Positions 7,141-54,828 of a stretch of DNA of 64,000 nucleotides are shown piece by piece. Position 1 is the first letter of the stretch. Every line of letters starts with the position of its first letter. The notes beneath the pieces are model-generated. The model made no database searches. It was not told where the DNA came from and saw only the letters and a program-made list of their open reading frames with translations. Position numbers and translations under genes: made by a program. The DNA is from an uncultured Bdellovibrionales bacterium (GTDB lineage: Bacteria > Patescibacteriota > Minisyncoccia > Moranbacterales > UBA1568): positions 25,447-89,446 of the forward strand of contig CAZQLN010000003.1 in the NCBI GenBank assembly GCA_964594215.1. The letters run 5' to 3'.

Positions 7141-7848
7141 ATGTTTGTAAAAGGGATCCTTATTGTATCAATTGCTCTTCTCATGGCTTTTTTGTATTCC
7201 CTTTATTCACTGCAGAGAAAAATAGCTTTTTCGCAGAAGTTAGCTGCCACTACCACAGCCTACGAGAATCAGAGCGGCGATCTGACGACTTCAGTTCTGG
7301 TTCTTGGTGATAGTACAGCGGTAGGGGTGGGAGCTAGTAATAAAGAAACATCAATACCAGGACTCTTTGCCAAGGAAGTAAGAGCTACTTATTTGGAAAA
7401 TCGGGGAGTCTCGGGTGCGAAGGTAGCCGATTTGGCAGGACAACTTGATGGTAAAAATCTTCCAGAGTATGACTATATTCTGATTCAAATCGGTGGTAAT
7501 GATGTAGTGGCCAGACATGACCCACAAAGAGTGGCCCAAGAACTTCTTAGTGTCCTTCAAAAATTACCACCTCATCAAAAACTGATTGTCCAGATGTGTG
7601 GTAATGTTGGTAGGGCGCCATTGTTGCCTTGGTATGTGCATTTCTACTATACGCAAAAAAGCCTTGCTTTTCATAAGGCTTTTGAGAGCACTGTGACCAA
7701 CTTCGGTGGATTATACGTCAATCTCTATGTTCCTAAAACAGAAGATCCTTTTGTAGCACAACCAGAAATCTACTTCAGTGCTGATGGTTTTCATCCATCG
7801 AGCGCTGGCTATGCGTCATGGTTTGAAATACTGAAAAAGAGCCTCTAG
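7141..7848 (+). CDS. SGNH/GDSL-family hydrolase with N-terminal membrane anchor
   Basis: Block I VLVLGDSTAVG, block III IQIGGNDV, block V DGFHPS; N-terminal TM helix. Confidence 0.7.
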   Translation: MFVKGILIVSIALLMAFLYSLYSLQRKIAFSQKLAATTTAYENQSGDLTTSVLVLGDSTAVGVGASNKETSIPGLFAKEVRATYLENRGVSGAKVADLAGQLDGKNLPEYDYILIQIGGNDVVARHDPQRVAQELLSVLQKLPPHQKLIVQMCGNVGRAPLLPWYVHFYYTQKSLAFHKAFESTVTNFGGLYVNLYVPKTEDPFVAQPEIYFSADGFHPSSAGYASWFEILKKSL

Positions 7849-7891: not shown

Positions 7892-10800
7892 ATGAAATAT
7901 ACCCTCAATTTTAAAGAACTTGGGAAGAATGATGCTCTGGTAGCGGGAGGTAAGGGAGCATCTCTTGGAGAGATGATTCGGGCTGGTATTCCTGTGCCAG
8001 ATGGGTTTGTGATTTTAGCTGATACATTTGATCTCTTTCTCAAGGAGACGGACTTGTTACAGGAAATTGAGGCTATCTTAGACGGTGTTAATCATGAAGC
8101 TATTCATACAGTAGAAGCTGCCTCTGAGAGTATTCAAGGGCTGATACTTTCACGGCCCATACCAGAAGTGATACAGAAAGAGATTCAAGAAAAATTTGCG
8201 GATCTTGGAAGTCAATATGTTGCGGTTCGTAGTAGCGCTACAGCAGAAGATGGTATCGAGCACGCCTGGGCTGGCCAACTGGATAGTTATCTTAATACCA
8301 CAGAAAGAGACTTAATAGAAAAGGTACGTAAGTGTTGGGCTTCGCTTTTTACGCCGCGAGCTATATTTTACCGTTTTGAAAAAGGGCTTCATAGTACCAA
8401 AATCTCTGTGGCCGTAGTAGTGCAGAGTATGGTCAATAGCGAAAAGTCAGGCATTGCTTTTTCAGTTCATCCAGTCACAGAGGATTATAATCAACTGATT
8501 ATTGAAGCTGGTTTTGGTTTGGGTGAGGCGATTGTATCTGGCGCAGTGACACCCGATAGTTATGTGGTAGAAAAATCACCATGGAAGATTCTTGATATAA
8601 ATATCAGTCATCAAGGAAGGGCTCTTTATCGTATTGATGGTGGCGGGAATGAGTGGCGAGACTTGGGAGAATCCTTTGGGAGTAATAAAGTATTAAATGA
8701 GGCACAAATCCAAGAGCTTTCAGATATTATTGTGCAGATTGAAAAACACTACGGTTTTCCATGTGATATTGAATGGGCTTTTGAAGACGGAAAATTCTTT
8801 ATAGTACAAAGCCGTCCAATTACTACTCTTAGTACAAAAGGAAACATAAACTTACAGAAGATAGAAAAAATCTTTTCTCGTGATTTTACGATGATCGCTC
8901 TAGAAATGGACTATCGTATGGAATACCAACGGGCTCGTCCTTGGGCTAAAGGAGAGAATCCGTATTCTCCGTACTTAGTTTTCTGGCGGAATGATGGGAC
9001 AAATAAAATTTACTTCAATTCAAAGGGAGTGGAGTGGATTCAGAGGGAGTTAGAGAAAAGAGTTCGAGAGAATAAGGATTTCCTGAAACTGGTAGAAGAA
9101 AATGTCAGGAAGGGAATTTCCTATATTAGGCCTGTTTATGAGGCGGAGAAAGCTATTGATCGAGAAAGCTTGATTCGATTTGTGGAGGAATTTATGGCGG
9201 CTTACTTCTGGATAGAGGCAATGTGGTGGATTAAGGGGATGGCTGACGAAAATCTTAAGGATATTGATTGTGCAAATATCGTGAGACTTCGAGAAGAAAC
9301 AGAGACACTTTCCGCCGCTACCGATAGAGTTATCCGTAAATCATTAGAAAAACTTTATCCGAAACTTGGTTTACTTTCAGCCATGATTTCTTTTGATGAG
9401 CTTAAAGGCGGAAATATTCCATCTGAAGAAGTACTAAGAACCAGAGATCAAGGCTTTGTTCTTATCAACAACGAAATTATCATTGATAAAAACTTTGATG
9501 ATGTTCTTAAAGAAAATGGATTGGAGTTAGTCGAGGAATCATTTCAGATGTTAGGTGAAGAATTAGAAGGACAGTCAGCTAGTAAGGGAAGGTACACTGG
9601 AAGAGTAGTGAGAGTAATGGGACATAACGACTTTGAAAAAGTTCAGGAAGGAGATGTATTAGTTTCACCAATGACTATGGTGGACTTTCTTCCTGTTATG
9701 AAAATAGCAGGAGCTTTTGTGACTGATGAAGGCGGAGCCCTCTGTCACGCTGCTATTGTGGCGCGTGAACTTGATAAGCCTTGTATTATAGGTACCAAGG
9801 TAGCTACGCAAGTATTTAAAGATGGAGACCTTATAGAGGTGGATGCTGATAATGGTGTGGTGAGGATTTTGGAAAAAGCGGAGGAATTAGAGATAGGTAA
9901 CTATCAAAAACTTTTCCAGTGGCCAGGAGAGTTTTCACATTTTCTCTCGTCTTACTTTATGGCCATATACAACAAGCACAAGGCCATCTCTTTGCATGAT
10001 GGAAACATGTGGCAGAGTTTCTTGCCGTATACATCAAAGGAAAAAACGCTTAAGTTAGGATTAGCACTGTATTCTTCTAAACAAGAGTATGAGGAATTGA
10101 GAAAAGGTCTGACAGAAGGCTTTGTAGAGCTTACTGCCCACTTCAATCAGGTACTGAAAAAAGATACCCTTACAAAAGAAGAAGTGGGGGCCTTCTTTGA
10201 TCAGGCATTAGAACACTACAACTATTACTCTCAAACAGAATTTTTCTTTACCGATCTTGCGTACTCTGAAATGAATAACGTTTCACAAATTCAAAAGAAC
10301 TTTGAAACTTTTGATGAATTGAAATTACAGGGCAGAGAATACTTGAATAAAATTGCATTAGCTCCAGGTTGTTACCTTGATAGGCTCATTGAGAAAATTG
10401 CACAGCAACTGAGTTATGACATTAGTGCCCTTAAGTGTCACTCTATTAATGAGATTCTGGAGTTGTTTGATGGAAAGAGTGTGAAGTCGGACGAACTGGT
10501 AAACAGAAATCAATACTTCATGCATGGGAGAGGATCTCATGCGGAGGTGCTTACCGGGGATACAGCCTTGAGAAAAATCCGTGACTTTTTTGCAGAAGTG
10601 GCTAAAACAAATGAAGTGAAGGGGCAAATTGCTAACAAAGGCTACTATCAGGGGCGTGCAAGGGTTTTTCGATTTTCTCTTTCAGAAATTAATTTGATGG
10701 ATGAAGAGATTGAGAAAATGGAGAAAGGGGAAATACTCATAGCGGATACTACAGCACCAGAAATTATTCTTGCTTGCAAGAAGGCTGGCGCGATTGTCAC

Positions 10801-10951
10801 CAATCAAGGAGGGATGATGTCTCACGCGGCTATTGTCGCCCGTGAACTAGGTATTCCCTGTATAGTAGGGACAGGGCATATAACAGAAATAGTGAAGACG
10901 GGAGATTTGTTAGAAGTAGATGCTGATAATGGGGTAGTAAGAATTTTATAA
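7892..10951 (+). CDS. PEP-utilizing-enzyme family protein, rifampin-phosphotransferase/PEP-synthase-like: N-terminal PPDK_N ATP-grasp domain plus two tandem (helical domain + phosphohistidine swivel domain) modules; no PEP-utilizers_C TIM barrel
   Basis: PPDK_N-like N-terminus (…VAVRSSATAEDG…, …CDIEWAFEDGKFFIVQSRPIT…). Two swivel motifs GGALCHAAIVARELDKPCIIGT and GGMMSHAAIVARELGIPCIVGT, each preceded by roughly 270 aa of helical region. Confidence 0.75.
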   Translation: MKYTLNFKELGKNDALVAGGKGASLGEMIRAGIPVPDGFVILADTFDLFLKETDLLQEIEAILDGVNHEAIHTVEAASESIQGLILSRPIPEVIQKEIQEKFADLGSQYVAVRSSATAEDGIEHAWAGQLDSYLNTTERDLIEKVRKCWASLFTPRAIFYRFEKGLHSTKISVAVVVQSMVNSEKSGIAFSVHPVTEDYNQLIIEAGFGLGEAIVSGAVTPDSYVVEKSPWKILDINISHQGRALYRIDGGGNEWRDLGESFGSNKVLNEAQIQELSDIIVQIEKHYGFPCDIEWAFEDGKFFIVQSRPITTLSTKGNINLQKIEKIFSRDFTMIALEMDYRMEYQRARPWAKGENPYSPYLVFWRNDGTNKIYFNSKGVEWIQRELEKRVRENKDFLKLVEENVRKGISYIRPVYEAEKAIDRESLIRFVEEFMAAYFWIEAMWWIKGMADENLKDIDCANIVRLREETETLSAATDRVIRKSLEKLYPKLGLLSAMISFDELKGGNIPSEEVLRTRDQGFVLINNEIIIDKNFDDVLKENGLELVEESFQMLGEELEGQSASKGRYTGRVVRVMGHNDFEKVQEGDVLVSPMTMVDFLPVMKIAGAFVTDEGGALCHAAIVARELDKPCIIGTKVATQVFKDGDLIEVDADNGVVRILEKAEELEIGNYQKLFQWPGEFSHFLSSYFMAIYNKHKAISLHDGNMWQSFLPYTSKEKTLKLGLALYSSKQEYEELRKGLTEGFVELTAHFNQVLKKDTLTKEEVGAFFDQALEHYNYYSQTEFFFTDLAYSEMNNVSQIQKNFETFDELKLQGREYLNKIALAPGCYLDRLIEKIAQQLSYDISALKCHSINEILELFDGKSVKSDELVNRNQYFMHGRGSHAEVLTGDTALRKIRDFFAEVAKTNEVKGQIANKGYYQGRARVFRFSLSEINLMDEEIEKMEKGEILIADTTAPEIILACKKAGAIVTNQGGMMSHAAIVARELGIPCIVGTGHITEIVKTGDLLEVDADNGVVRIL

Positions 10952-10957
10952 AATACT

Positions 10958-12058
10958 ATGAGTAAGCGACCAGAAGATTACAAAAAGTTTTTTACAGCAG
11001 AATGTGAGATTACTTGTTTGCATTGTGATTTTCTCATGCGTCAGAGCCCACTCGCTGCTGCAGACTTGCTGGCTTTCAATAAGGGCTTAGAGTTTCATGT
11101 TTTCTTGCGCAAGGATAAAGAATACCGTTGTGCTGAAGAAGGGATCGAGCTTTTCTTTGATCAAGAACGGTATGAGATTTTTCTGAGAGATTTCCAGGCC
11201 TATGCAGATGAGGCTCTGAGTGTTTTTGTACCAAAGTGGAGCAAAATTCCGACAACTCTTTCCAAAGAAGAATTTATTGAAGCAGCAAATTTTCTCGGCA
11301 AATTGTGGTATTTCTATGGTTTTACAGAGTTTCCTTTTATTGATAAAGCCTATGAAAAAGCCAAAGCAGAGAGTAATGCAGAAGTCCAGAAACGACTAGA
11401 AGATTTTGGGCAGTTTAAATTCACAGGCCGTGAAGTATTGAATGCTTTTTGGTTTGAGGGTGGTCCGATACCGAACATCCTCCTCGGTGTTTCCCAGATG
11501 TTTCTTAAAGATGATGATGCCAAGTTTCTCTTTCTTGCTGAGCTTACAGCGTTGTTTGATGGATGGCGCCCAACTGAGGAATTAGTGAAAGAGCGGAGAG
11601 AATACTATGGTATGAATGTCACGGACGGCGTAGCGGAAGTATTGGGCTTTACACAAGCCAAAGAACTATACGTACAATTTACCCGAGTACCAGATGATTT
11701 GGTAATAAAAGGCGTGACTGCCAATAAAGGAAAGGTCACCGGAAGGGTAATTATCGCCCCTATGCTCAATGACCATGGAGCCATTGCTCTGCTTGATGCT
11801 AAAATGAAGCAAGGAGATATCTTGGTAGCAGAAAGTACAAGTCCAGATTTGATGTCCTTGTGTCGTAAGGCATCGGCCATAGTAGCTGATCAAGGGGGAC
11901 TGCTCTCTCATGCTGCAATTGTGTCTCGGGAACTTGGTGTACCTTGTGTGATCCAGGCGGAGGTTGCTACTCGGAGATTGAAAGAAGGGGACCTGGTAGA
12001 GGTGGATGCGGATAAAGGTTTCGTTACTATTTTAGAAAGGATAGAAGAAGGCATATAA
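10958..12058 (+). CDS. standalone (helical domain + PEP-utilizing-enzyme swivel phosphohistidine domain) protein; third module paralogous to those in the upstream gene
   Basis: C-terminal GGLLSHAAIVSRELGVPCVIQ. N-terminal region shares blocks with the upstream modules (WYFYGFTEFPFIDKAY vs YNYYSQTEFFFTDLAY; FKFTGREVLNAF vs LKLQGREYLNKI). Confidence 0.7.
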   Translation: MSKRPEDYKKFFTAECEITCLHCDFLMRQSPLAAADLLAFNKGLEFHVFLRKDKEYRCAEEGIELFFDQERYEIFLRDFQAYADEALSVFVPKWSKIPTTLSKEEFIEAANFLGKLWYFYGFTEFPFIDKAYEKAKAESNAEVQKRLEDFGQFKFTGREVLNAFWFEGGPIPNILLGVSQMFLKDDDAKFLFLAELTALFDGWRPTEELVKERREYYGMNVTDGVAEVLGFTQAKELYVQFTRVPDDLVIKGVTANKGKVTGRVIIAPMLNDHGAIALLDAKMKQGDILVAESTSPDLMSLCRKASAIVADQGGLLSHAAIVSRELGVPCVIQAEVATRRLKEGDLVEVDADKGFVTILERIEEGI

Positions 12059-12146: not shown

Positions 12147-12590
12147 TTACTTCCTCCACTTATCCAGTATTTCGATGATACTCGACAGTGACTGCTCGAT
12201 GTGGTTGGCGCAGTCATGGTAGGCTTGTTCGCCTTGCTGCCAGGGATTGGGCACGCCACCACCGAGAATGATGATGGGCGTGTGACCCTCTCGCATTGCA
12301 GTGAGAGCGTTCGCTTCTTCTTCGCCGACCGTTAGGATGAGTTGGTACTCACTGAGATCAAGTGTCCCGACGAAACGGGACACGTGGCCGTCGGCATTAA
12401 TGCCACGATCACGAAGCTCCTTTTGGGAAAATTCTGCCATGGGCTGTCCTGCAGCAGATTCTCTGAGGCCAGCGCTTTCCACCGTGACATTGGCAAAGCC
12501 GATTATTTCTCCCAGCTCATGACGAAGCATACGCTCCATCATCGGTGATCGACAGGTGTTGCCGAGACAAACGCAAAGAACTTTGTGCAC
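12147..12590 (-). CDS. low-molecular-weight protein-tyrosine phosphatase / arsenate-reductase family
   Basis: N-terminal P-loop VLCVCLGNTCRSPMME (C-x5-R); size 147 aa. Confidence 0.8.
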   Translation of the reverse strand: MHKVLCVCLGNTCRSPMMERMLRHELGEIIGFANVTVESAGLRESAAGQPMAEFSQKELRDRGINADGHVSRFVGTLDLSEYQLILTVGEEEANALTAMREGHTPIIILGGGVPNPWQQGEQAYHDCANHIEQSLSSIIEILDKWRK

Positions 12591-12703
12591 TTATTCCTCC
12601 TCTTGTGATAAGAAAAAATTGTTAGAAATCTGATCATAAACCATAATCCCAACCTGAGATTATACACCTAAACCAGATAAAAGTCAATAATAGAGCCATT
12701 TAT

Positions 12704-12741: not shown

Positions 12742-14418
12742 ATGAGACGTGAACACAAAATCCGCTGGCAATTCGCGGCCGTGCTCCTTTTGGGGCTCGT
12801 GTCCGGGCTTATTGCATATCCAAAAGCCATTTCTTTTTTCCCAGCTGGCTACAATTGGCTCAATCAATTACAAGTAAACCGGGGACTTGATCTTGAGGGA
12901 GGTATTCACTTGGAATATGCTGCTGATACTTCGAATATAGCTAAGGATAAAGAAAAAGATGCTCTTCAAGCAGCTGAGGCAGTCATCGAGCGACGCGTCA
13001 ATGCTTTTGGTGTGGGTGAACCATTGGTTCAGCTCTCGAAAGCAGGGAGTGAAAATCGTATCATTGTAGAGCTGCCTGGTATTAAAAATATTGAAGAAGC
13101 CAAGGCGCTGATCAAAGAAACCCCATTTCTTGAATTTCGTGAGCCAGCGAGTGATGAGTTCAAGGCGCAGTTAGCCCAAGATAATGAAAAAGCTCGTGCT
13201 CAAGCGGAAACTATTTTGAATCGTGCTAAGAGCGGTGAAGATTTTTCGAAATTGGCTACCGAGTTCAGTCAGGATCCTGGTTCCAAAAATCAGGGCGGAG
13301 AATTGGATTTCGTGAAAAAAGGTGCTTTTGTTCCAGAATTTGATGAAACCATTTTCCGGGCAGATTTTCCAAAGGGTAAGATCAATGACTCTCTTATCGA
13401 AACTGACTATGGTTACCATATTATCAAGAAACTAGATGAACGAGGTGAGGGAGATGATCGAGAGGTCAAGGCGGCCCACATTCTTTTTCTCAAGAAATCT
13501 ATTGAAACCGACCCACTCTTAGCGTATCAACCAACCGGACTTTCTGGTAAAAACCTCAAAGACGCTTCGGTAACCTATCAGTCGCAAGGATTGGGGTCGC
13601 CACAGATTCAGTTACAGTTTGACGATGAAGGAACAAAATTGTTTGCAGATATTACGAAGCGTAATGTAGGTAAGCCGGTTGCTATTTTTCTTGATAATGA
13701 ACTCCTTCAGGCACCGGTTATTCAAGTAGAAATTCCAAATGGTCAGGCAGTGATCACGGGAGATTACACTATCACTGAAGCCAATGCTCAGGTAAAACGC
13801 CTCAACGAAGGAGCGTTGCCTGTACCGATCAATTTGGTTGGTCAGCAAAGTGTCGATGCCTCTTTGGGTGAAGTCGCATTGAGTCAGAGTCTTAAAGCTG
13901 GCTTTATCGGTCTGGTGGCGGTTGCTCTTTTCATGTTGCTCTTCTATCGTTTCCTCGGTCTTATTGCTGTTTTGGCACTTATCCTCTACACAGCGATGCT
14001 TTTCTCACTTTTCAAACTTTCTGTGCTCACACCATTTCCGATCACGGTGACTCTCTCTGGTATCGCTGGGTTTATTCTCTCAATTGGTATTGCGGTGGAT
14101 GCTAATGTGCTTATTTTCGAACGTACTCGCGAAGAACTCTCATACGGTAAGGGGGCTATCAAATCGATTAAGGAGGGTTTCCGTCGAGCCTGGCCAAGTA
14201 TTCGTGATGGTCATGTCTCGACTCTTCTCACCACCTTTATTCTCGTAGGTTTGGGAACGGGCTTCGTCAAAGGTTTCGCAATTATTCTCGCCTTAGGTGT
14301 GTTGCTCTCTCTCTTTACAGCGGTAGTTTTGGTGCGTACGACTACCACTTTCTTCATTGGAGAGTGGATGGAAAAACATCCATGGCTACTTGTTACTCCT
14401 AAGAAACCTATCGAATAG
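12742..14418 (+). CDS. secD: protein translocase subunit SecD carrying an inserted parvulin-like PPIase segment
   Basis: SecD hallmarks (LDLEGG, IIVELPGIKNIEEAKALIKETPFLEFRE, P1-head, six C-terminal TMs with DANVLIFER). Insert at about aa 135-250: GEDFSKLATEFSQDPGSKNQGGELDFVKKGAFVPEFDETIF…DYGYHIIKK…AAHILF. Confidence 0.85.
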   Translation: MRREHKIRWQFAAVLLLGLVSGLIAYPKAISFFPAGYNWLNQLQVNRGLDLEGGIHLEYAADTSNIAKDKEKDALQAAEAVIERRVNAFGVGEPLVQLSKAGSENRIIVELPGIKNIEEAKALIKETPFLEFREPASDEFKAQLAQDNEKARAQAETILNRAKSGEDFSKLATEFSQDPGSKNQGGELDFVKKGAFVPEFDETIFRADFPKGKINDSLIETDYGYHIIKKLDERGEGDDREVKAAHILFLKKSIETDPLLAYQPTGLSGKNLKDASVTYQSQGLGSPQIQLQFDDEGTKLFADITKRNVGKPVAIFLDNELLQAPVIQVEIPNGQAVITGDYTITEANAQVKRLNEGALPVPINLVGQQSVDASLGEVALSQSLKAGFIGLVAVALFMLLFYRFLGLIAVLALILYTAMLFSLFKLSVLTPFPITVTLSGIAGFILSIGIAVDANVLIFERTREELSYGKGAIKSIKEGFRRAWPSIRDGHVSTLLTTFILVGLGTGFVKGFAIILALGVLLSLFTAVVLVRTTTTFFIGEWMEKHPWLLVTPKKPIE

Positions 14419-29881: not shown

Positions 29882-30295
29882 ATGAGGAATGGACGAACTT
29901 GGGTGTATCTTTTGGGGTTTTTAATTTTGCTTTCCTCGGCAATCCTTTTCTATAGGATCTTTATCCTAAAGGACTATATCATTACTGCTCAGAGCCAGTG
30001 TAACCCTAACCTAGAAACCTGTTTTGTTATTGATTGTACTGAAGGTGATTTAGAGTGTGAAGGACCTACTTACTATAGGAATATTAAAGTGAGAGCAGTT
30101 GACACAACTTGTGGTTTAGAAGATCCGAGGTGTTTGTATGATTTTGCTTGTAGTGAAGAGTCAGGAAATTGCGAAATTGAGTACTGTGATGATTCGAATG
30201 TTCTTGAAGAAGAACGTTGTAGCGGTGAGGAGGATAAAGAAGTTCAGGAACTAGAAGACACCGGTGCTACAGAAGAGATTGAAACAGTATTATGA
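29882..30295 (+). CDS. membrane-anchored, Cys-rich (11 Cys) acidic extracytoplasmic protein, paralog A
   Basis: N-terminal TM; CNPNLETCFVIDCTEGDLECEGPTYY…CEIEYCDD; similar to 32766..33362. Confidence 0.6.
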   Translation: MRNGRTWVYLLGFLILLSSAILFYRIFILKDYIITAQSQCNPNLETCFVIDCTEGDLECEGPTYYRNIKVRAVDTTCGLEDPRCLYDFACSEESGNCEIEYCDDSNVLEEERCSGEEDKEVQELEDTGATEEIETVL

Positions 30296-31068
30296 ATGAA
30301 TTAGTAAATCACGATAAAAATGGCGTTTATAGCAAGTTTTTTGATGCTATAACAGAAGTAAAGGCTCGCTGGGAAAATGATGATTTAAGAAAGGCTGTCG
30401 AAGAAAGGTTGGGAGGTGATATACCAGAAGTTTTTCAACAAGGTCCAAAGGCAACTATTGTAAGGTATATTGCTAGTCCTAATGTAGAGTCCTATTACTT
30501 TCATGATTTAGCAGAGTTAAGTGGCTTGGATCCTTTATATCTTGAGTTTACACAAGATAAGTTTGTAGCTAAAAATCCCTCAAAGTATCATTTGTGTAAA
30601 CTATCCTCAGTAAGTGAGGAAAATAGTGGTGAAAAGTCCGTAAAGGTTGTAGATTTTAATAAGTATGAGGGTAAGCTCCTGAGTGAGATTGAGACATTGA
30701 ATGGAAAAAGGTTAGTTCAATTCCACCATGATCTTTTCACTAAATCTAGTGCCGGAATACAGAAGCCTTTTATATACGATTTCTCAGAATGGTTTCTAAA
30801 GCATAGGAATAAGAATGGTTTCTACTATTTCGACTATCTTGCACTTTTTGTTTGTCATGGCGTCCTTTTTGAAAATTTCTTAGGAGACAAAGAAGAGTCT
30901 AATTTCACAGATGAAATAGTTAAGCCTGCTTTTGAGGAAATAGAGAGAGTTTTCGGTGTTAAACCTCTTATTTTTCCTTTACAGCCTATCAAAGTTGAGG
31001 AACATAAAAATTGGTATGGGTATAAGGACGCTTTACTCGAAGAAATTAGAGAAGAAATAACAAAATAG
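30292..31068 (+). CDS. hypothetical cytoplasmic protein
   Basis: 258-aa ORF overlapping the upstream stop by 4 nt; no motif recognised. Confidence 0.5.
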   Translation: MNELVNHDKNGVYSKFFDAITEVKARWENDDLRKAVEERLGGDIPEVFQQGPKATIVRYIASPNVESYYFHDLAELSGLDPLYLEFTQDKFVAKNPSKYHLCKLSSVSEENSGEKSVKVVDFNKYEGKLLSEIETLNGKRLVQFHHDLFTKSSAGIQKPFIYDFSEWFLKHRNKNGFYYFDYLALFVCHGVLFENFLGDKEESNFTDEIVKPAFEEIERVFGVKPLIFPLQPIKVEEHKNWYGYKDALLEEIREEITK

Positions 31069-31070
31069 AT

Positions 31071-32762
31071 ATGGATAGTTTAATTGTAGGAAATTTAGAG
31101 TATTGCGGAGAGATTGTTCAAGATACTGTGGATTTGCTTTATTATTCACACTTTTCTACCATTATTCTCTCACTTTTTATTTCATCTTTTGTTTTTTTTA
31201 AAAATAGAAGTTCTGTTGCTGCTAAGCTTCTTTTTGTAATGTGTTTAACTTTTGCGTTGTGGACTTCTGTTGATCTTACGGTATGGCTCACGTATGATTT
31301 CTCGGCTCTTTCAGTTTTTTTATGGGCCTTTTTTGGAATTTTCTATCTTCTTATATTTGTTTTCGCATATATTTTTTTTGCTGTTTTTTCTCAAGAAAAG
31401 GACGACATTTCTCTCGGAGAAAAAACATTTCTTTCATTTTTAATTGCCCCCGTAATTCTCTTGATGCCATTTCAGTACAACGTGGTTGGATACGATGCCG
31501 TTGATTGCATTGTTACGGAGGGCACTTTCTATTCAAGTTACTACTATTTAGCAAGTCTCCTTATAATCTTTGCTGTCTTTTTAAAGGGCATACTTGTTTA
31601 TAAAAAAACTGAACAAAAGGAGAAAAAACAACAAATATTGTACTTATTAGCAGGCCTTATTCCTTTCCTTTCGTTATTCTTTTCTCTTGGATTTCTGGTC
31701 TCATATCTTGTGAATAACGGAGTAATTGGAGAATTTGGTTTTGAACAGTATGGACTTTTTGGAATGCCTATCTTTGTAGCTATTATTGGTTATATAGTTG
31801 TTCGTTTTAAAGCTTTTGATGTTAAGTTAATCGGAGCACAGGCGCTGATATTCATTCTGGTTGCTCTTATTGGGTCTCAGTTTTTTTATGCAAAATCTCA
31901 GACTGACTATACCTTAGATGCACTTACTTTGATTGCTGTACTTATTGTAGGATACTTTCTAATTCGTTCAGTCAAAAAAGAAATTGAAAGGAAAGAACAA
32001 TTAGAGAAGTTGTCATATAGCTTAGAAAAGGCTAATGATCGGCTCGAGGAGCTCGACAAGCAGAAGTCGGAGTTTATCTCGATTGCTTCACACCAGCTTC
32101 GTACACCGCTGACCGCTATTCGAGGGTATATCTCGCTGGCACTCGAGGGAGCTTATGGTAAGGTCAAGGGGACTCCGATAGAAGATATAATGAATAAGAT
32201 GTACACCATCGATCTGCGACTCTCACAGTTGGTGGAGGATCTGCTCAATGTTTCTAAGATCGAAGCTGGTAAAGTGCAATACAAATGGGAGAGTGTCACT
32301 CTCGATCCTATTGTGAGTGAACTCTATGATATGTTTGCTGTTTTGGCTGAGAAGAAAGGGCTCAAACTTCACATGATCAAACCAGAGACTCAGCTTCCAG
32401 TAATGAAGCTTGATATCAATAAAATCAAAGAGATTCTCTCTAACCTGATCGATAATGCTATCAAATACACAGAGAAGGGCAGCGTGACTATCCGAGTAGA
32501 GCAAGATGCTACAGTAGCTCGAGTAGTGATCGAGGACACTGGTATCGGTATTTCCAAAGAGGATGCTTTGCGTTTATTCGGGAAGTTTATCCGTACGGAG
32601 ACTACTCAGAAGATGGATGCTGGTGGTAGCGGGCTCGGCTTGTTTGTGGGCAAGACTTTTGTTGAGGGTCATGGCGGAAGAGTCTATGCTACGAGTGAGG
32701 GTGTAGGTAAGGGTTCGAGCTTCATCGTAGAGTTGCCTCTGATTAATCCAAATGCTTCTTAG
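31071..32762 (+). CDS. sensor histidine kinase with about 8-TM membrane-embedded sensor domain (HisKA + HATPase_c)
   Basis: H-box SHQLRTPLTAIRGY; N, G1 (DTGIGI), G2 (GGSGLGL) boxes; N-terminal 300 aa polytopic. Confidence 0.8.
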   Translation: MDSLIVGNLEYCGEIVQDTVDLLYYSHFSTIILSLFISSFVFFKNRSSVAAKLLFVMCLTFALWTSVDLTVWLTYDFSALSVFLWAFFGIFYLLIFVFAYIFFAVFSQEKDDISLGEKTFLSFLIAPVILLMPFQYNVVGYDAVDCIVTEGTFYSSYYYLASLLIIFAVFLKGILVYKKTEQKEKKQQILYLLAGLIPFLSLFFSLGFLVSYLVNNGVIGEFGFEQYGLFGMPIFVAIIGYIVVRFKAFDVKLIGAQALIFILVALIGSQFFYAKSQTDYTLDALTLIAVLIVGYFLIRSVKKEIERKEQLEKLSYSLEKANDRLEELDKQKSEFISIASHQLRTPLTAIRGYISLALEGAYGKVKGTPIEDIMNKMYTIDLRLSQLVEDLLNVSKIEAGKVQYKWESVTLDPIVSELYDMFAVLAEKKGLKLHMIKPETQLPVMKLDINKIKEILSNLIDNAIKYTEKGSVTIRVEQDATVARVVIEDTGIGISKEDALRLFGKFIRTETTQKMDAGGSGLGLFVGKTFVEGHGGRVYATSEGVGKGSSFIVELPLINPNAS

Positions 32763-45771: not shown

Positions 45772-46293
45772 ATGACTCAAAAAGAATACCAGATGGAGGA
45801 GCAAATCAAGCGATGGAATATCGTAGCCATTGGGATTTTTGTCATTCTTACGCTGCTAGCAATACGTTGTCTTGATGTTCGTGATATACAATTGCAATAC
45901 CTTTCACTAGGTGACTTCATGATACTCGCCCTGGCTATCATGCGGGTTATTCGTCTCATAGCTTATGATAATATCACCCTTTTTCTTCGCGAAGCCTTTC
46001 TTGATGTCAAAACGGTTCGTTATGCAGAAGAAGGGGAAGAATTTATCGAGCGAGTCCCTTCTGAAAATTCTCTCAAGCGTACCATATCAAAACTACTCAA
46101 CTGTCCATGGTGTCTAGGCGTCTGGGTGGCCTTGTTTGTTCTTTATTTTGCCCTTGTGTACCCAAGTCTTTGGATTATCTTTGTCTTACTCGCTCTCTCA
46201 GGAGTGGCAAGTCTGATCCAGATAGCAGCCAATCTTATGGGCTGGAATGCGGAGTACCGTAAGATAGCGACTGAAAAAACCATTAGTATGTAG
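45772..46293 (+). CDS. hypothetical membrane protein with CPWCxGxW motif (DUF1360-like, low confidence)
   Basis: NCPWCLGVWVALFVLYF… within TM helices. Confidence 0.5.
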   Translation: MTQKEYQMEEQIKRWNIVAIGIFVILTLLAIRCLDVRDIQLQYLSLGDFMILALAIMRVIRLIAYDNITLFLREAFLDVKTVRYAEEGEEFIERVPSENSLKRTISKLLNCPWCLGVWVALFVLYFALVYPSLWIIFVLLALSGVASLIQIAANLMGWNAEYRKIATEKTISM

Positions 46294-46299
46294 TAAGAT

Positions 46300-47466
46300 A
46301 TGCCAAGTTTTGAACGACCAAGGCTGACTGAAGTCATACCTATAAATGAAGAGGGTATCAGTAAATTAAGAGATACCTTTGAAAACTATTTTTCTCAAAT
46401 AAACAGTGAGACCGGAGTAAGCGTATTTTTGGAGGCTGTAAAAGAAGTTAACTCAATTGAGATAAGTGCTAAGAATCAAGAGTACGTTAAAGGATGGCTT
46501 GCTCAAATCCTTGAGAAGTCTTACTATTTAGCATTTATAGCTGGTATATCTACAGAAGTCTTTTCTAAGGAACTTCAAACAGGTTTAACTTTAGTGCCAA
46601 TAATTCCTGACTATCTGAATGAAAGTCACGAAAGAGAGCTCAAAAGAGAGCCTGCTTTTATGGAGAGTATAGAGGGCACCCTAGAAAGATTTTCATATAT
46701 TGAAAAGTTGCCACAGATATTTAGAAAAAAAGTGCAAGCTATAATAATAGGAGGATCAATGAGTTACGGACCATTTTTTAATATTCGAAAGAATTTAGAC
46801 AAAACAGGAAGTTCAGATATTGATGCTATCTTTGTGATGAAAGAAGATTTTTTGGATGACGATAACTGGGAATTATTTAACACTTCTTCTCAATTCTTTG
46901 AAGAAGATAAAATCGAATTTCAAAAAAGAAAAAAAGATTTTAAAACACTCTACGTGCAAAATCAGGCAGATGTATTTAGTCAACGCTTCAATGTTCCGGG
47001 ACGTGATTTTAATATGAGCGTACATTTCTTTACTCTTGAGAATCTTGAGAAGATGTGCAATTCTGAACTCAAGGATGATTTAAAGTTGAATCTTGATAGG
47101 GTTAAAATTTTAAGAGATTTTAAGGCTAGAAAATTTGAACACAAAGATTGCAATCAGTTAAACTTTTTTGGAGAAATATTTTCATACCCCATTCCAGAAC
47201 AGAAGCCAGTTGATGGTGGGTACATTGCAAATTTACCCAGTTACATGATTAGGGGAGGTCATCTGTATCCAGGAATCTATCAGAATATAATATCACCAGA
47301 ATTTTCAGTCTTTTGTGATAATGGAGGAGAGGTGGGAGATTTGGTAAAGGTCTTTCAACAAAATATTCAAAATAGACTTGATGATGAAAATAATGTAAAA
47401 GAGGGAGCTGGTTCTATAAAGGAATCTCACTTCAGAAACCATTTTTTTGCTTTAGGAAGATACTAA
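46300..47466 (+). CDS. pol-beta-superfamily nucleotidyltransferase-fold protein of unknown specificity
   Basis: IIGGSMSYGPFFNIRKNLDKTGSSDIDAIFV matches hG[GS]-x(n)-DhDh; third acidic cluster FLDDDNWE; about 140-aa N-terminal extension. Confidence 0.5.
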   Translation: MPSFERPRLTEVIPINEEGISKLRDTFENYFSQINSETGVSVFLEAVKEVNSIEISAKNQEYVKGWLAQILEKSYYLAFIAGISTEVFSKELQTGLTLVPIIPDYLNESHERELKREPAFMESIEGTLERFSYIEKLPQIFRKKVQAIIIGGSMSYGPFFNIRKNLDKTGSSDIDAIFVMKEDFLDDDNWELFNTSSQFFEEDKIEFQKRKKDFKTLYVQNQADVFSQRFNVPGRDFNMSVHFFTLENLEKMCNSELKDDLKLNLDRVKILRDFKARKFEHKDCNQLNFFGEIFSYPIPEQKPVDGGYIANLPSYMIRGGHLYPGIYQNIISPEFSVFCDNGGEVGDLVKVFQQNIQNRLDDENNVKEGAGSIKESHFRNHFFALGRY

Positions 47467-47469
47467 AAA

Positions 47470-48027
47470 TTACATCTTTTCAAATACATGGACTGCTTGA
47501 GCCATGCTGCGGACATCGTGGAGAGCGTTGTGTACGTGTCCGTACATCTCTAGTCCAGCTGCCTGATAGAGTGTTCCGCTAGAGTAGGCATCAGCATCAA
47601 TTTTCCATCCAGAAAGTAGGGGCTTGACTTTAATAAAGGGTAAATCTTCAAAAGGATAGGCGATCCCAAAGTAAGAACAGTTCTGTTGTAATACTCCCCA
47701 ATCAGCATTGAATGTCCAGATGGGATAGTTTTTGACAAAGTCTACAAGACTTTTTAGCGCTGTTGGAAAATCAATCGCATTAGTAGTTAGTTGAGAATCA
47801 GTAATATTTGTAAGTTCAACGAAAAAAGGTGGAAGTTTTTTTTCAAAAGCTGGCCATGTCAACACGTCAAAACTAGTCACTTCTTTTCCAGTATGATTAT
47901 CGAACAAAATAGCAGAAATTTGGACTATTTGACGCTTTTCATTTTCATCGGGACGACCCTTTTCGGGAGTCATTTCGGGATAGCAGTATTCTAGGTCTAA
48001 GTACACTCGATAGTCATTTTCTTTCAT
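47470..48027 (-). CDS. DEDDh-family 3'-5' exonuclease (DnaQ/oligoribonuclease/KapD-like)
   Basis: Exo I VYLDLEY (DxE), Exo II FNADWG, Exo III HNALHDVRSMA (H-x4-D); 185 aa. Confidence 0.65.
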   Translation of the reverse strand: MKENDYRVYLDLEYCYPEMTPEKGRPDENEKRQIVQISAILFDNHTGKEVTSFDVLTWPAFEKKLPPFFVELTNITDSQLTTNAIDFPTALKSLVDFVKNYPIWTFNADWGVLQQNCSYFGIAYPFEDLPFIKVKPLLSGWKIDADAYSSGTLYQAAGLEMYGHVHNALHDVRSMAQAVHVFEKM

Positions 48028-49469: not shown

Positions 49470-49542
49470 GGGTGTGTAGCTCAGTTGGTAGAGCAGTGGC
49501 CTTTTAAGCCAACGGTCGCAGGTTCGAGCCCTGCCACACCCA
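49470..49542 (+). tRNA. tRNA-Lys (anticodon UUU); 3' CCA not encoded
   Basis: Manual fold: perfect 7-bp acceptor GGGTGTG/CACACCC, D-arm GCTC-AGTTGGTA-GAGC, anticodon loop CTTTTAA, 5-nt variable loop, T-arm GCAGG-TTCGAGC-CCTGC, discriminator A. Confidence 0.85.
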
Positions 49543-53858: not shown

Positions 53859-54725
53859 ATGAAGTATACCTTCTCAACCGCTCTTGTGGCGGTGTCGCTC
53901 GCTTTTGCTTCCCAGGCCTCGGCCAAGGAAGTGAAGCCGGCAGAGATGGAGGTTCGCGGCCTTCACGCCGTCGAAGCTCCCTGGCAACCAGAGAGTCTGT
54001 CGCTTGACACGCGTCAAGTGCAGGCACTCCAGGTAATTACTATCCCACTTTCGGAGGCAACAAAGAAAGAATGGGCAAAAGTTAACCGTGATAAACGTGG
54101 TATTCGAATGATCGTCGATGGAGAAGATGGCAAGCCTCGGCTTGTTGGACGACCCGTCATCAAGGCGACGTTTCGCGTATTGCTTATGAAGGATGGTGAC
54201 ATTCTTCCTATGAGCGAAGCCGAAATGATTACCACTGGCGGTGAGGCCATCAATATCCTCTTGCCGCCTGACGTTGATTTCCGTGGAACGACAGCCTTTG
54301 TGTTGGCGGATCGCGGACGTCATGCACTTACTCTTGCGGGTGAGATTATCGATCTCGACAAGGGAAAGAAACGACTTATTACGTCCAAGTTGCCCGATCA
54401 AGTTGCCACTTCGGTGGTGGAAGACACGGCTTTGAGTGTACGGGGTGAGCCTTCTGGGTTGTACCTCGATATGCTGGAAGCCACATTTAGCGAACACGCT
54501 GTTCTCAACAACAGTCTTCGCTATTCCGGTCTTCCCGGCACTTTTCTTTCCAAGGATATGACCCGTTACCCTTCGGTGGCGGCTCTCTATACGAGGGAAG
54601 ACACAGTCGGCGATCGCTTGATTACCTGCGGCAATGGAACACTGGATCCGTCCATGTTCACTGGTATTGGAGCCCTTGTTAAAGTGGGCTCCAACCTCAT
54701 CGTCGCACTCAAGAAACGTTGCTAG
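53859..54725 (+). CDS. secreted hypothetical protein, GC-rich (about 52-55%)
   Basis: Signal peptide MKYTFSTALVAVSLAFASQASA; GGAG 8 nt upstream; composition unlike its flanks. Confidence 0.6.
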   Translation: MKYTFSTALVAVSLAFASQASAKEVKPAEMEVRGLHAVEAPWQPESLSLDTRQVQALQVITIPLSEATKKEWAKVNRDKRGIRMIVDGEDGKPRLVGRPVIKATFRVLLMKDGDILPMSEAEMITTGGEAINILLPPDVDFRGTTAFVLADRGRHALTLAGEIIDLDKGKKRLITSKLPDQVATSVVEDTALSVRGEPSGLYLDMLEATFSEHAVLNNSLRYSGLPGTFLSKDMTRYPSVAALYTREDTVGDRLITCGNGTLDPSMFTGIGALVKVGSNLIVALKKRC

Positions 54726-54828
54726 GAGAAATTCGATGACCTGGCAGCACGGCAACCCTATCGATCAATTCTGGTCGAGACGGTTGCTCTGTGCGCCGTC
54801 TCGACTTCCATCAAGGAGTGTAAGTATC

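Follow-up and report, generated by a model that had tools for sequence, protein, structure and literature searches.

Closest described systems

Rifampin phosphotransferase (RPH; e.g., RPH-Lm, PDB 5fbs/5fbt/5fbu/5hv1) has one acceptor domain and one swivel domain per ATP-grasp domain, and the phosphotransfer step in its acceptor domain needs Arg666-Glu667 (PMC4844700). HpeHI, PpsAB and CreHI are two-subunit systems in which the acceptor-plus-swivel subunit is charged in trans by a distinct ATP-grasp subunit (PMC12167813); each pairs one ATP-grasp with one acceptor subunit of ~600 aa and is encoded in an aromatic catabolism operon. The prodiginine ligases PigC, HapC and RedH, the flavonoid phosphate synthetase YvkC, and PspR likewise share the RPH-like three-domain build but differ in acceptor or role, which shows that retargeting of the helical domain is possible (PMC13534948, PMC13099321, PMC10948481); each has a single module in about 830-890 aa, and repeated swivel modules are not known in any of them. 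PEP synthase (PpsA) and pyruvate phosphate dikinase share a homologous ATP-grasp (PPDK_N) and swivel, and the same dikinase logic via His~P. No published description of an architecture with a single ATP-grasp and multiple modules was found in the literature.

The locus studied here lies in a window of 64,000 nucleotides from an uncultured, tiny-genome bacterium of the Patescibacteriota (contig CAZQLN010000003.1) and holds three acceptor-plus-swivel modules for one ATP-grasp, one of them on a separate gene. Compared with RPH, its helical domains are short (about 240 versus about 440 aa), a phosphatase partner is present, and the distribution is in CPR and DPANN genomes. Its second protein, P2, resembles HpeH/PpsA of the two-subunit systems, and stand-alone ATP-grasps in related loci (e.g., L088) resemble HpeI/PpsB; however, three modules occur per ATP-grasp here and no catabolic genes lie nearby. 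Unlike PEP synthase and pyruvate phosphate dikinase, the locus has multiple swivels, no PEP/pyruvate TIM barrel and no regulatory Thr, and a helical acceptor domain precedes each swivel.

Organization of the locus and catalytic residues

The two genes, P1 (7892-10951, 1019 aa) and P2 (10958-12058, 366 aa), were both on the forward strand and separated by a 6-nt gap. Pfam searches resolved P1 into a PPDK_N ATP-grasp followed by two repeats of a helical domain and a PEP-utilizers swivel (two PF00391 stretches), and P2 into a third helical-plus-swivel module, M3 (one PF00391 stretch). The ATP-grasp, the nucleotide-binding domain and the sole copy in the locus, spanned 7892-8854 (P1 aa 1-321; PPDK_N at aa 18-321, E = 9e-95). 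It was followed by the putative acceptor-binding helical domain of M1, the most divergent copy (8855-9550, aa 322-553), swivel phosphohistidine domain 1 (9551-9895, aa 554-668, PF00391; catalytic H619 at nt 9746-9748), the M2 helical domain (9896-10603, aa 669-904) and swivel domain 2 (10604-10951, aa 905-1019 plus stop, PF00391 at aa 944-1014; catalytic H978 at nt 10823-10825). P2 comprised the M3 helical domain (10958-11692, aa 1-245) and swivel domain 3 (11693-12058, aa 246-366 plus stop, PF00391 at aa 284-354, E = 9e-25; catalytic H318 at nt 11909-11911). The PEP-utilizers_C barrel was absent from both proteins in the Pfam scan. The ORF positions and domain matches bear out the layout given in a preliminary description of this DNA, namely two ORFs with one ATP-grasp, three swivels and no PEP-utilizers_C.

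All three catalytic motifs were intact: CHAAIVARE in swivel 1 (H619; swivel 1 motif, GGALCHAAIVARE), SHAAIVARE in swivel 2 (H978) and SHAAIVSRE in swivel 3 (P2 H318). Each His was invariant in homologue alignments, in line with the preliminary claim that no swivel had lost it. In the same kind of alignment, R467 and R518 were nearly invariant in the M1 helical domain, and R815 and R872 were invariant in M2. The invariant Arg sat in G-R-E (P2 R158, P1 R815) or L-R-E (P1 R467). P2 R158 was located 19 residues upstream of the alignable block, versus 25 in RPH, and its equivalence to Arg666 is positional only. The second conserved Arg (P2 R213, P1 R518, P1 R872) aligned to the ARKRDF block of RPH and was kept in 82/84 short and 107/119 long modules among those that could be aligned.

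This conservation bears on a regulatory role. PspR of Haloferax mediterranei, an RPH-like protein composed of an ATP, a ligand and a His domain, was reported as a repressor without rifampin phosphorylation (PMC10948481) and is a precedent for a DNA-binding regulator derived from such an enzyme. However, the catalytic residues were strictly conserved in the ATP-grasp and the three swivels, a Pfam scan of P1 and P2 revealed no DNA-binding domain, HTH or otherwise, and tandem arrays of up to 13 modules with phosphatase partners point to phosphotransfer, so a regulator is very improbable here.

Relation to solved structures and family models

The nearest solved structures were rifampin phosphotransferase and HpeI. 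The ATP-grasp fold was near-identical to the ATP-grasps of both, and the match of the P2 module to RPH extended beyond the swivel. The helical middle regions are related to the rifampin-binding domain of RPH, in a cut-down form of about 235-250 aa where RPH has about 440 aa, with superposition limited to the C-terminal part. At about half the size, the helical domain is a putative substrate-binding site. The AlphaFold2 model of P1 had a pTM of 0.49 and its inter-domain geometry is unreliable.

Public annotations place such proteins in central metabolism as PEP synthase (pyruvate, water dikinase). The best-scoring NCBIfam matches were indeed PEP synthase models (523 and 497 bits), and the ATP-grasp and swivel had their highest sequence similarity to the archaeal PEP synthase 8a8e. 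However, both scores were under the cut-offs (598 and 740 bits) and arose from the ATP-grasp and swivels alone. The PEP-utilizers_C TIM barrel is missing, the domain order is RPH-like with the acceptor domain before the swivel, and the residues preceding the catalytic His (ALCH, MMSH and LLSH) lack the regulatory Thr two positions upstream. We regard this assignment as scarcely credible. The NCBIfam PigC and RedH models also matched P1 and P2 below cut-off.

A strict RPH function, that of an enzyme inactivating rifamycins or other antibiotics made by hosts or neighbours and giving an episymbiont broad detoxification, appears rather unlikely. In its favour, no solved structure is closer than RPH to either the ATP-grasp or the module, rph-like matches were found in a CPR resistome survey (PMC8651080), and many diverged modules would suit many drugs. 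The characterized acceptors of the superfamily, which include rifampin, phenols, flavonoids and prodiginine precursors (PMC4844700, PMC12167813, PMC13099321, PMC13534948), are all hydrophobic or phenolic hydroxyl compounds. By contrast, the NCBIfam RPH equivalog models reached only 370 and 256 bits where their cut-offs are 999 and 1700, and the helical domain is short and superposes in its C-terminal part only. Further, the module types are old and common to distant lineages, not lineage-specific expansions, and a dedicated phosphatase next door would reverse detoxification. The antibiotic or rifamycin kinase proposed at first found no positive support.

Origin of the three modules

In BLASTP, M2 and M3 matched end to end (33% identity over 328 aa, E = 4e-44), whereas only the swivel of M1 was detected by the other modules. 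When the helical parts alone were compared with hhalign, all pairs were recovered, with probabilities of 99.7% for M1-M2 (E = 5e-26), 99.2% for M1-M3 (E = 1e-19) and 100% for M2-M3 (E = 1.6e-48). The alignments paired exactly the helical blocks that had been quoted when an internal triplication was first suggested, and the order of secondary-structure elements in the AlphaFold2 models was identical across M1, M2 and M3, so that suggestion holds and the middle regions are related to each other. On this sequence evidence, the three helical domains are homologous, old and strongly diverged paralogues.

The 153-nt swivel cores (starting at 9723, 10800 and 11886) were only 66-72% identical in DNA, indicating an old triplication and not an assembly artefact. 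Both genes also recurred in independent assemblies (loci L001-L003), and a 1032-aa P1 homologue (77% identical) was followed by a P2 homologue (83% identical). Duplication during assembly, raised earlier for the second swivel, was ruled out by these observations.

Distribution of single ATP-grasps and module arrays

The search for related loci used P2-type patterns and gene calling was heuristic, so the counts are approximate. The 81 loci surveyed held 261 swivel modules and 37 ATP-grasp genes, with more than one ATP-grasp in one locus only; this ratio supports the earlier view of a single ATP-grasp serving several acceptor modules. Related modules were about 350-520 aa, some fused into polypeptides with 2-5 swivels, and reached at least 13 per locus. 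Proteins with two or three swivels and long arrays of stand-alone modules were common in CPR and DPANN genomes; the three-module arrangement is thus not the departure peculiar to this locus that it had seemed. Among array modules, 94% had a closer relative in another genome than within their own array, indicating that the module types are old and have distinct specificities. Mean identity was highest in the ATP-grasp (67%) and lowest in the helical domains (19-37%), those of the M2 and M3 types being better conserved than M1.

Module order and the fused or split state varied freely among homologues. In other genomes, the ATP-grasp and M1 formed a complete solitary protein of 660-669 aa (64-70% identity). 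In L088, a stand-alone ATP-grasp 69% identical to the P1 domain shared an operon with a P2-type module (36% identity), M1 was absent, and an LMWPc gene was convergent with the operon. An orthologous stand-alone ATP-grasp of this kind would have to load modules directly in trans.

These arrangements also weigh on the idea that the ATP-grasp and M1 are the sole real enzyme, with M2 and P2 as regulatory or buffering phospho-acceptors or as steps in a serial His-to-His relay, the latter proposed in the preliminary description. The solitary ATP-grasp-M1 proteins and the distance in sequence of the distal swivels from the ATP-grasp are consistent with it. However, the catalytic His and the invariant Arg residues are kept in M2 and M3, whose helical domains are well conserved; in L088, the P2-type module is paired with an ATP-grasp that lacks M1; and the shuffled module order would not fit a fixed relay. 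An internal phosphorelay is disfavoured by the acceptor domain with conserved Arg in each module, the shuffling and the stand-alone ATP-grasps elsewhere, and we consider a single enzyme with accessory acceptors quite improbable.

A phosphatase-family partner

A gene for a 147-aa LMWPc-family phosphatase-fold protein was convergent with P2 (12147-12590, reverse strand; Pfam LMWPc, E = 7e-21); the preliminary description had not mentioned this conserved partner. A promoter-like site upstream of it (12659-12687, reverse strand; TTGACT-17-TATAAT, 11/12 matches) is a consensus match only, and the total of such sites across the region was no higher than in shuffled sequence. The P-loop was C8-L-G-N-T-C-R14-S, and the general-acid Asp was replaced by Asn115 (VPNPW aligned to IPDPY of 7dhd); CxGNTCRS and NP[WYF] were shared by 32/33 LMWPc homologues.

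Across the loci, phosphatase-family genes (LMWPc, HAD or His_Phos) made up 37/390 genes within three genes of the system versus 2/571 farther away (p = 3e-13), and 34/39 were directly adjacent to it. The phosphatase family tracked module type. An LMWPc-family gene directly adjoined 9/26 P2-type modules versus 13/229 other modules (p = 6e-5), and a search in the opposite direction, starting from a 40%-identical LMWPc, led back to an ATP-grasp and P2-type module converging on it. The LMWPc protein is a probable partner of the P2-type module.

LMWPc, HAD and His_Phos families all act via covalent phospho-enzyme intermediates, and the EIIB of some PTS families has an LMW-PTP-like fold with a phospho-Cys. 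In classical LMW-PTPs, loss of the general-acid Asp cripples hydrolysis and could stabilise Cys~P. A phosphorelay directed at proteins could be drawn from this, in which the swivel His~P passes to Cys8 of LMWPc here and to Asp or His of HAD or His_Phos partners elsewhere, as from PTS EI/HPr to EIIB or in mutase priming. The shared intermediates, the Asn in 32/33 members of the LMWPc subfamily, the tracking of module type and the fold that the swivel shares with the EI His domain are in its favour. However, 53/81 loci had no phosphatase-family gene within three genes, every module keeps a conserved Arg site as in RPH, a small-molecule enzyme, and P2 and LMWPc are convergent and not co-transcribed in CPR genomes, making such a relay unlikely. 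One phosphoryl source feeding many substrate-specific branches also recalls the PTS; however, energy comes from an ATP-grasp here and from the PEP-binding EI C-domain in the PTS. In P1 and P2, neither HPr nor EII domains were detected, and the likeness to the PTS lies in its logic and does not extend to family membership.

Proposed mechanism and significance

The locus is probably a modular multi-acceptor dikinase of the RPH/HpeHI type, organized as a hub and spokes. The bare ATP-grasp beside a P2-type module in L088 and the excess of swivels over ATP-grasp genes support this model, which is favoured over a rifamycin-specific role, a PEP synthase or a serial relay. ATP would be bound by the single ATP-grasp of P1, on which the swivels would dock in turn, H619 and H978 in cis and P2 H318 in trans. 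The docked swivel would be pyrophosphorylated at the beta-phosphate and the gamma-phosphate would leave as Pi, giving His~P and AMP. Each charged swivel would then swing back to its own helical domain, where the conserved Arg-containing site may pass the phosphate to a hydroxyl-type acceptor. The chemistry (AMP, Pi and phosphorylated acceptor), the trans loading and the independence of the modules are suggested by analogy with characterized relatives. Given the age and strong divergence of the helical paralogues, each of the three modules is expected to phosphorylate a different acceptor. The Asn-variant LMWPc, the probable partner of the P2-type module, would most simply dephosphorylate either the product or P2~P. 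If kinase and phosphatase both acted on one small molecule, the result would be a futile cycle, barring temporal or spatial separation.

This locus is a modest representative of a system spread more widely across CPR bacteria and DPANN archaea, a build that is apparently undescribed yet common in ultra-small bacteria and archaea.

Gene organization and catalytic motifs of the locus

Two forward-strand genes form the core of the locus: P1 (window 7892-10951, +; an ORF of 1019 aa) and P2 (10958-12058, +; an ORF of 366 aa), separated by a spacer of 6 bases, TAAaatactATG. The Pfam search placed an ATP-grasp domain (PPDK_N) at aa 18-321 of P1 (E 9e-95). PEP-utilizers swivel stretches were found twice in P1 and once in P2 (aa 284-354, E 9e-25), and neither protein matched PEP-utilizers_C (PF02896) at E <= 1. 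The missing TIM barrel excluded a PEP synthase (pyruvate, water dikinase). The ORF and its domains matched the preliminary description of one ATP-grasp domain and two helical-plus-swivel units (modules M1 and M2) in the 1019-aa protein. The third such module (M3), placed in the next gene with neither ATP-grasp nor barrel, was recovered in P2, which contained PF00391 only.

The N-terminal ATP-grasp of P1 keeps equivalents of the catalytic Lys22/Arg117/Thr136/Glu297 of rifampin phosphotransferase (RPH). The RPH-type swivel motif GGxx[SC]HAAI with its catalytic His occurs in three copies, as CHAAIVARE (H619), SHAAIVARE (H978) and SHAAIVSRE (P2 H318), and these His residues were invariant in alignments of 39 P1-like and 109 P2-like homologues. 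The residues preceding the catalytic His (GGALCH, GGMMSH and GGLLSH) lack the PEP-synthase regulatory Thr (GGxT[SC]H) in all three copies. The domains, their conserved residues and the linkage of the genes are direct observations. A DNA-binding role like that of PspR (PMC10948481) is unlikely for proteins with full catalytic conservation.

The genes around the locus encode a GDSL hydrolase, an ABC-F ATPase, a NUDIX protein, a phosphatase-fold protein (LMWPc), SecDF and TyrRS; aromatic-compound catabolic genes were absent among these neighbors. The upstream GDSL hydrolase gene (7141-7848) was rejected as a system member: locus L007, which is 83% related, lacks it and has its P1 homologue directly after the ABC-F gene. 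P1, P2, LMWPc and the GDSL protein had no PADLOC match to known anti-phage defence, and a promoter/terminator scan gave site numbers no higher than in shuffled sequence. Downstream, SecD (12742-14418, +) contains a PPIC-type parvulin peptidyl-prolyl isomerase inserted at aa 144-233 (Rotamase_3, E 2e-24), where it separates the first domain of SecD from the P1 head of the same protein; judging from this domain order, the protein is a predicted translocon-chaperone fusion.

Triplication of the modules

The swivel cores, each 153 nt long, share 66-72% DNA identity, with distances of 1077 and 1086 nt between successive starts. The same gene pair was found in three independent assemblies. A 77%-identical P1 homologue of 1032 aa is followed downstream by an 83%-identical P2 homologue. 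An assembly duplication artefact, which had been named as a possible refuter of the repeat structure, was therefore ruled out, since the copies are only 66-72% identical and independent assemblies agree.

BLASTP aligned M2 (P1 673-1019) and M3 along their full length as paralogues (33% identity across 328 aa, E 4e-44). Between M1 and the other modules, BLASTP detected the swivel only. Profile-profile comparison of the helical parts was decisive, giving a probability of 99.7% for M1 and M2 (E 5e-26), 99.2% for M1 and M3 (E 1e-19) and 100% for M2 and M3 (E 1.6e-48). The internal triplication proposed earlier from shared blocks is thus upheld, and those blocks were recovered in the alignment. Two Arg columns were superposed by the helical profile alignment, R467/R815/R158 and R518/R872/R213. 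AlphaFold2 models (P2, pLDDT 94.8 and pTM 0.88; P1, pLDDT 87.7 and pTM 0.49) predicted a secondary-structure order common to the three modules: strand, helix, hairpin, long-helix bundle, helix, hairpin, helix and swivel. The mutual arrangement of the P1 domains is unreliable because the pTM is low.

Relation to known dikinases

Curated NCBIfam models for PEP synthase, RPH, PigC and RedH scored far below their cut-offs and matched through the ATP-grasp and swivels only. The RPH models reached 370 bits against a cut-off of 999 (NF041857) and 256 against 1700 (NF000283); the PEP synthase models TIGR01418 and NF005057 reached 497 against 740 and 523 against 598. The locus is a member of the RPH/HpeHI superfamily and falls outside both RPH proper and PEP synthase. 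The public names "PEP synthase", "PEP-utilizing enzyme" and "rifampicin phosphotransferase" are misleading for metabolic reconstruction and resistome surveys.

Residues 169-360 of the P2-homologue profile align to RPH-Lm 683-866, indicating that the helical domain is a reduced relative of the RIF-binding domain that keeps the part cradling the swivel. The central RIF-binding domain of RPH spans ~440 aa (apex, arm 1 and arm 2), whereas the helical domains in the window span about 232-245 aa, and structural alignment between the two covered about 75-140 residues only. The second phosphotransfer of RPH depends on the essential Arg666-Glu667 (PMC4844700). An invariant Arg followed by Glu is present in all three window modules (R158-E159, R815-E816 and R467-E468), 19 residues upstream of the block resembling RPH 691-736; the RPH dyad lies 25 upstream, so that the position is similar, not provably identical. 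The helical-part profile alone aligned just to RPH 691-736, and weakly (E 0.14). The second Arg matches the "ARKRDF" block of RPH, and other genomes retain it in 82/84 short and 107/119 long modules.

P2 resembles the acceptor-plus-swivel subunit of the two-component dikinases HpeHI, PpsAB and CreHI in having PF00391 only, an RPH-like helical domain and no ATP-grasp. In those systems the ATP-grasp is a separate subunit that loads its partner in trans; in the window it is fused to M1-M2, and in the related locus L088 an orthologous stand-alone ATP-grasp adjoins a P2-type module. Those systems belong to an aromatic catabolic operon with a phenolic acceptor, and no catabolic genes lie beside the window locus. 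The likeness to PTS Enzyme I is confined to the swivel domain: the scores for Enzyme I models were 70-72 bits, where 342 and 824 are required, and neither its C-terminal PEP-binding domain nor HPr or EII domains were found in P1 or P2.

Distribution and module arrays in CPR and DPANN genomes

The P1 protein search returned thousands of matches, and the named ones among the best 120 were mostly CPR/Patescibacteria or DPANN. Among these 120, a list biased towards proteins resembling the two-module query, the ATP-grasp was accompanied by three swivels in 58, two in 56, one in 5 and four in 1. Stand-alone P2-like proteins of ~360 aa were numerous. A profile of the short helical domain matched 914 clusters (50% identity) among 1.84 billion representatives, as single modules or 2-4 repeats per protein. 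A scan of GTDB species genomes confirmed at least 521 relatives; the 79 loci kept from it carried labels that were almost all Patescibacteria lineages or Woese-, Nano-, Micr- and Iainarchaeota.

In 81 non-redundant loci, ascertained with P2-type patterns from query-biased match lists, with heuristic ORF calls of our own and taxon labels as deposited, 261 swivel domains were counted against 37 ATP-grasp genes. More than one ATP-grasp gene was present in one locus only. At least three swivels occurred in 39 of the 81 loci (maximum 13), and the system genes were co-directional in 79. Some polypeptides combined an ATP-grasp with four swivels (~2000 aa), and one had five. By length, the helical domains formed two classes, a short one of 240-320 aa and a long one of 360-440 aa, and 236/255 were linked in a single cluster at E 1e-5. 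Mean identity reached 67% in the ATP-grasp and 52-60% in the swivels and fell to 19-37% in the helical domains, the least conserved part.

The nearest relative of 94% of array modules was in another genome and not in their own array, which ruled out recent tandem duplication as the origin of the arrays. Nor are P1 and P2 a colinear split of the fused three-swivel proteins (n=58): the M1-like module stands at position 1, 2 or 3 in these, and M2 and M3 match the same module. The closer relatives abroad and the shuffled position of M1 show that the modules are old, distinct types behaving as cassettes.

Solitary proteins with the ATP-grasp and an M1 module, 64-70% identical to P1, were found at L085:5318-7327 (669 aa) and L087:7001-8983 (660 aa), one of the two contigs being CPR-like and the other seemingly archaeal; their identity to P1 aa 1-665 was 64-66%. 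Identity this high across domains of life suggests recent inter-domain transfer. In another locus, L088, a stand-alone ATP-grasp of 315 aa, 69% identical to the P1 domain without a gap, shares an operon with a P2-type module. The preliminary description had raised an internal phosphorelay. Both a serial His-to-His relay and a system in which M1 alone is catalytic are argued against by the shuffled module order and by L088, where a P2-type module is paired with a bare ATP-grasp.

Several individual loci were also noted. One of the L085 and L087 contigs looks archaeal, with a TFIIS-type Zn-ribbon gene upstream and an integrase just downstream; the other is CPR-like. L028 (Woesearchaeota) encodes a five-swivel protein, cut by the locus start, and 8 more module genes; in L039 (Taylorbacteria), two LMWPc genes accompany 11 module genes; and in L045, L057 and L064, 9-10 module genes follow one another, with no more than one stand-alone ATP-grasp. 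The label of L007 is "Bdellovibrionales"; its identity to P2 is 83%, and other close P2 relatives are labelled Paceibacterota/Patescibacteria. L007, L009, L010, L032, L045 and others carry bulk MAG labels such as "uncultured Bdellovibrionales", "Gammaproteobacteria" or "Methanosarcinales". With module genes that share 38-83% identity with Patescibacteria/DPANN ones, these labels look unreliable.

A phosphatase partner of the modules

A conserved phosphatase partner, absent from the preliminary description, was found beside the modules when genes lying up to three genes away from the system were clustered in search of recurrent families. Wide recurrence was confined to two LMWPc subgroups, a HAD_2 group and His_Phos_1-like groups, which represent three phosphatase superfamilies. 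HMMs of these clusters matched 37/390 near genes and 2/571 farther genes of the same loci (Fisher p 3e-13), a test that shows concentration and not unbiased discovery, since the clusters were discovered among near genes. Direct adjacency to a system gene was observed for 34/39 HMM matches. LMWPc-family genes stood directly beside 9/26 P2-type modules compared with 13/229 other modules (p 6e-5), and HAD genes adjoin long modules; the phosphatase family tracks the module type. In CPR genomes a 147-aa LMWPc gene lies downstream in convergent orientation, as at window 12147-12590 (-), and in DPANN genomes an LMWPc-like gene of 209-250 aa lies directly upstream on the same strand. Reverse look-up from a 40%-identical LMWPc homologue again led to a gene adjoining an ATP-grasp and a P2-type module, and several closer LMWPc homologues lie on contigs equal in length to contigs with P1 or P2 homologues; look-up from a second homologue (P0391, 38% identity) found no swivel neighbor on its 6.4-kb contig.

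The proposal that the locus is an antibiotic kinase gained no positive support. A role specific to rifamycin or another antibiotic fits poorly with module types that are old and widely shared, and with a phosphatase directly adjacent.

The window LMWPc (Pfam LMWPc, E 7e-21) keeps the P-loop C-X5-R-S (C8-LGNTC-R14-S15), and its Asn115 (VPNPW) aligns to the general-acid Asp of IPDPY (7dhd) and VQDPY (2cwd). CxGNTCRS together with NP[WYF] was kept in 32/33 LMWPc homologues, down to 34% identity, indicating a specialised subfamily rather than a decayed gene. The Thr in the P-loop is reminiscent of the arginine phosphatase YwlE, so that the substrate may contain a P-N bond (a phosphoramidate), for example phosphohistidine. 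The most interesting alternative to transfer onto a small acceptor is protein-directed transfer, with the nucleophile of the phosphatase-fold protein receiving the phosphate from His~P; such a route would be compatible with the fact that LMWPc partners have systematically lost the general acid.

Other features of the window

Window 53859-56187 has 54% G+C, compared with ~43% for the window, and long overlapping ORFs on both strands; it had no Pfam or Rfam match and may be foreign or non-coding. Low-G+C stretches occur at 30001-32000 (34%) and 46001-48000 (37%), the former preceding or overlapping a histidine kinase gene (31071-32762; HisKA + HATPase_c). A 258-aa ORF (30292-31068) and a 388-aa ORF (46300-47466) had no Pfam match. 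Nearly every ORF of 150 aa or longer is on the + strand, and the cumulative GC skew rises monotonically over the whole window. The Rfam scan of the 64 kb found a single tRNA (49470-49542) and no match bearing on the locus.

Proposed mechanism and significance

The proposed reaction is modelled on RPH (PMC4844700) and on HpeHI, PpsAB and CreHI (PMC12167813). ATP would be bound by the ATP-grasp; the swivel His would attack the beta-phosphate, the gamma-phosphate leaving as Pi; and the His~P domain would return to its own helical domain and phosphorylate the acceptor bound there. One ATP-grasp would serve H619 and H978 in cis and P2 H318 in trans, as a hub with spokes. Three different putative acceptors would be expected, each swivel being paired with its own diverged acceptor domain. 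LMWPc would most simply undo what the P2-type module does, with either the product or the carrier as its target. The chemistry, the loading in trans and the independence of the modules are predictions of this scheme, and its novelty is the stoichiometry, one ATP-grasp with several carriers.

To our knowledge, every characterised swivel dikinase (PEP synthase, PPDK, RPH, PigC, YvkC and HpeHI/PpsAB) combines a single ATP site with a single His carrier and a single acceptor site. In the present system several carrier and acceptor cassettes accompany each ATP site, and they are fused, split and reshuffled between genomes; such sharing would be a new way to build substrate breadth into a kinase. 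The module cassettes take up to about 20 kb of a locus in organisms with ~1 Mb genomes, and the arrays point to an important activity of CPR/DPANN symbionts, for example scavenging, detoxification or signalling. The conserved association with atypical phosphatases, among them an LMW-PTP subfamily lacking the general acid, offers a concrete experimental handle. No description of multi-swivel dikinases with a shared ATP-grasp, their CPR/DPANN arrays or the phosphatase pairing was found in the open-access full-text literature, which is not proof of absence, and a CPR resistome survey counted rph-like matches (PMC8651080).

A far-reaching reading, which we rate as improbable, is a hitherto unrecognised ATP-driven phosphoryl-distribution network in CPR/DPANN. 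A highly conserved ATP-grasp hub would load interchangeable His-carrier modules, of which each genome would have its own library (3 modules here, at least 13 elsewhere). Every module would have a cognate phosphatase-fold partner working through a covalent intermediate (LMWPc with Asn replacing Asp, HAD or His_Phos), and this partner would be the next phospho-acceptor or a reset switch. If true, this network would be an ATP-powered functional analogue of the PTS, with which ultra-small symbionts could trap or activate many scavenged host metabolites.
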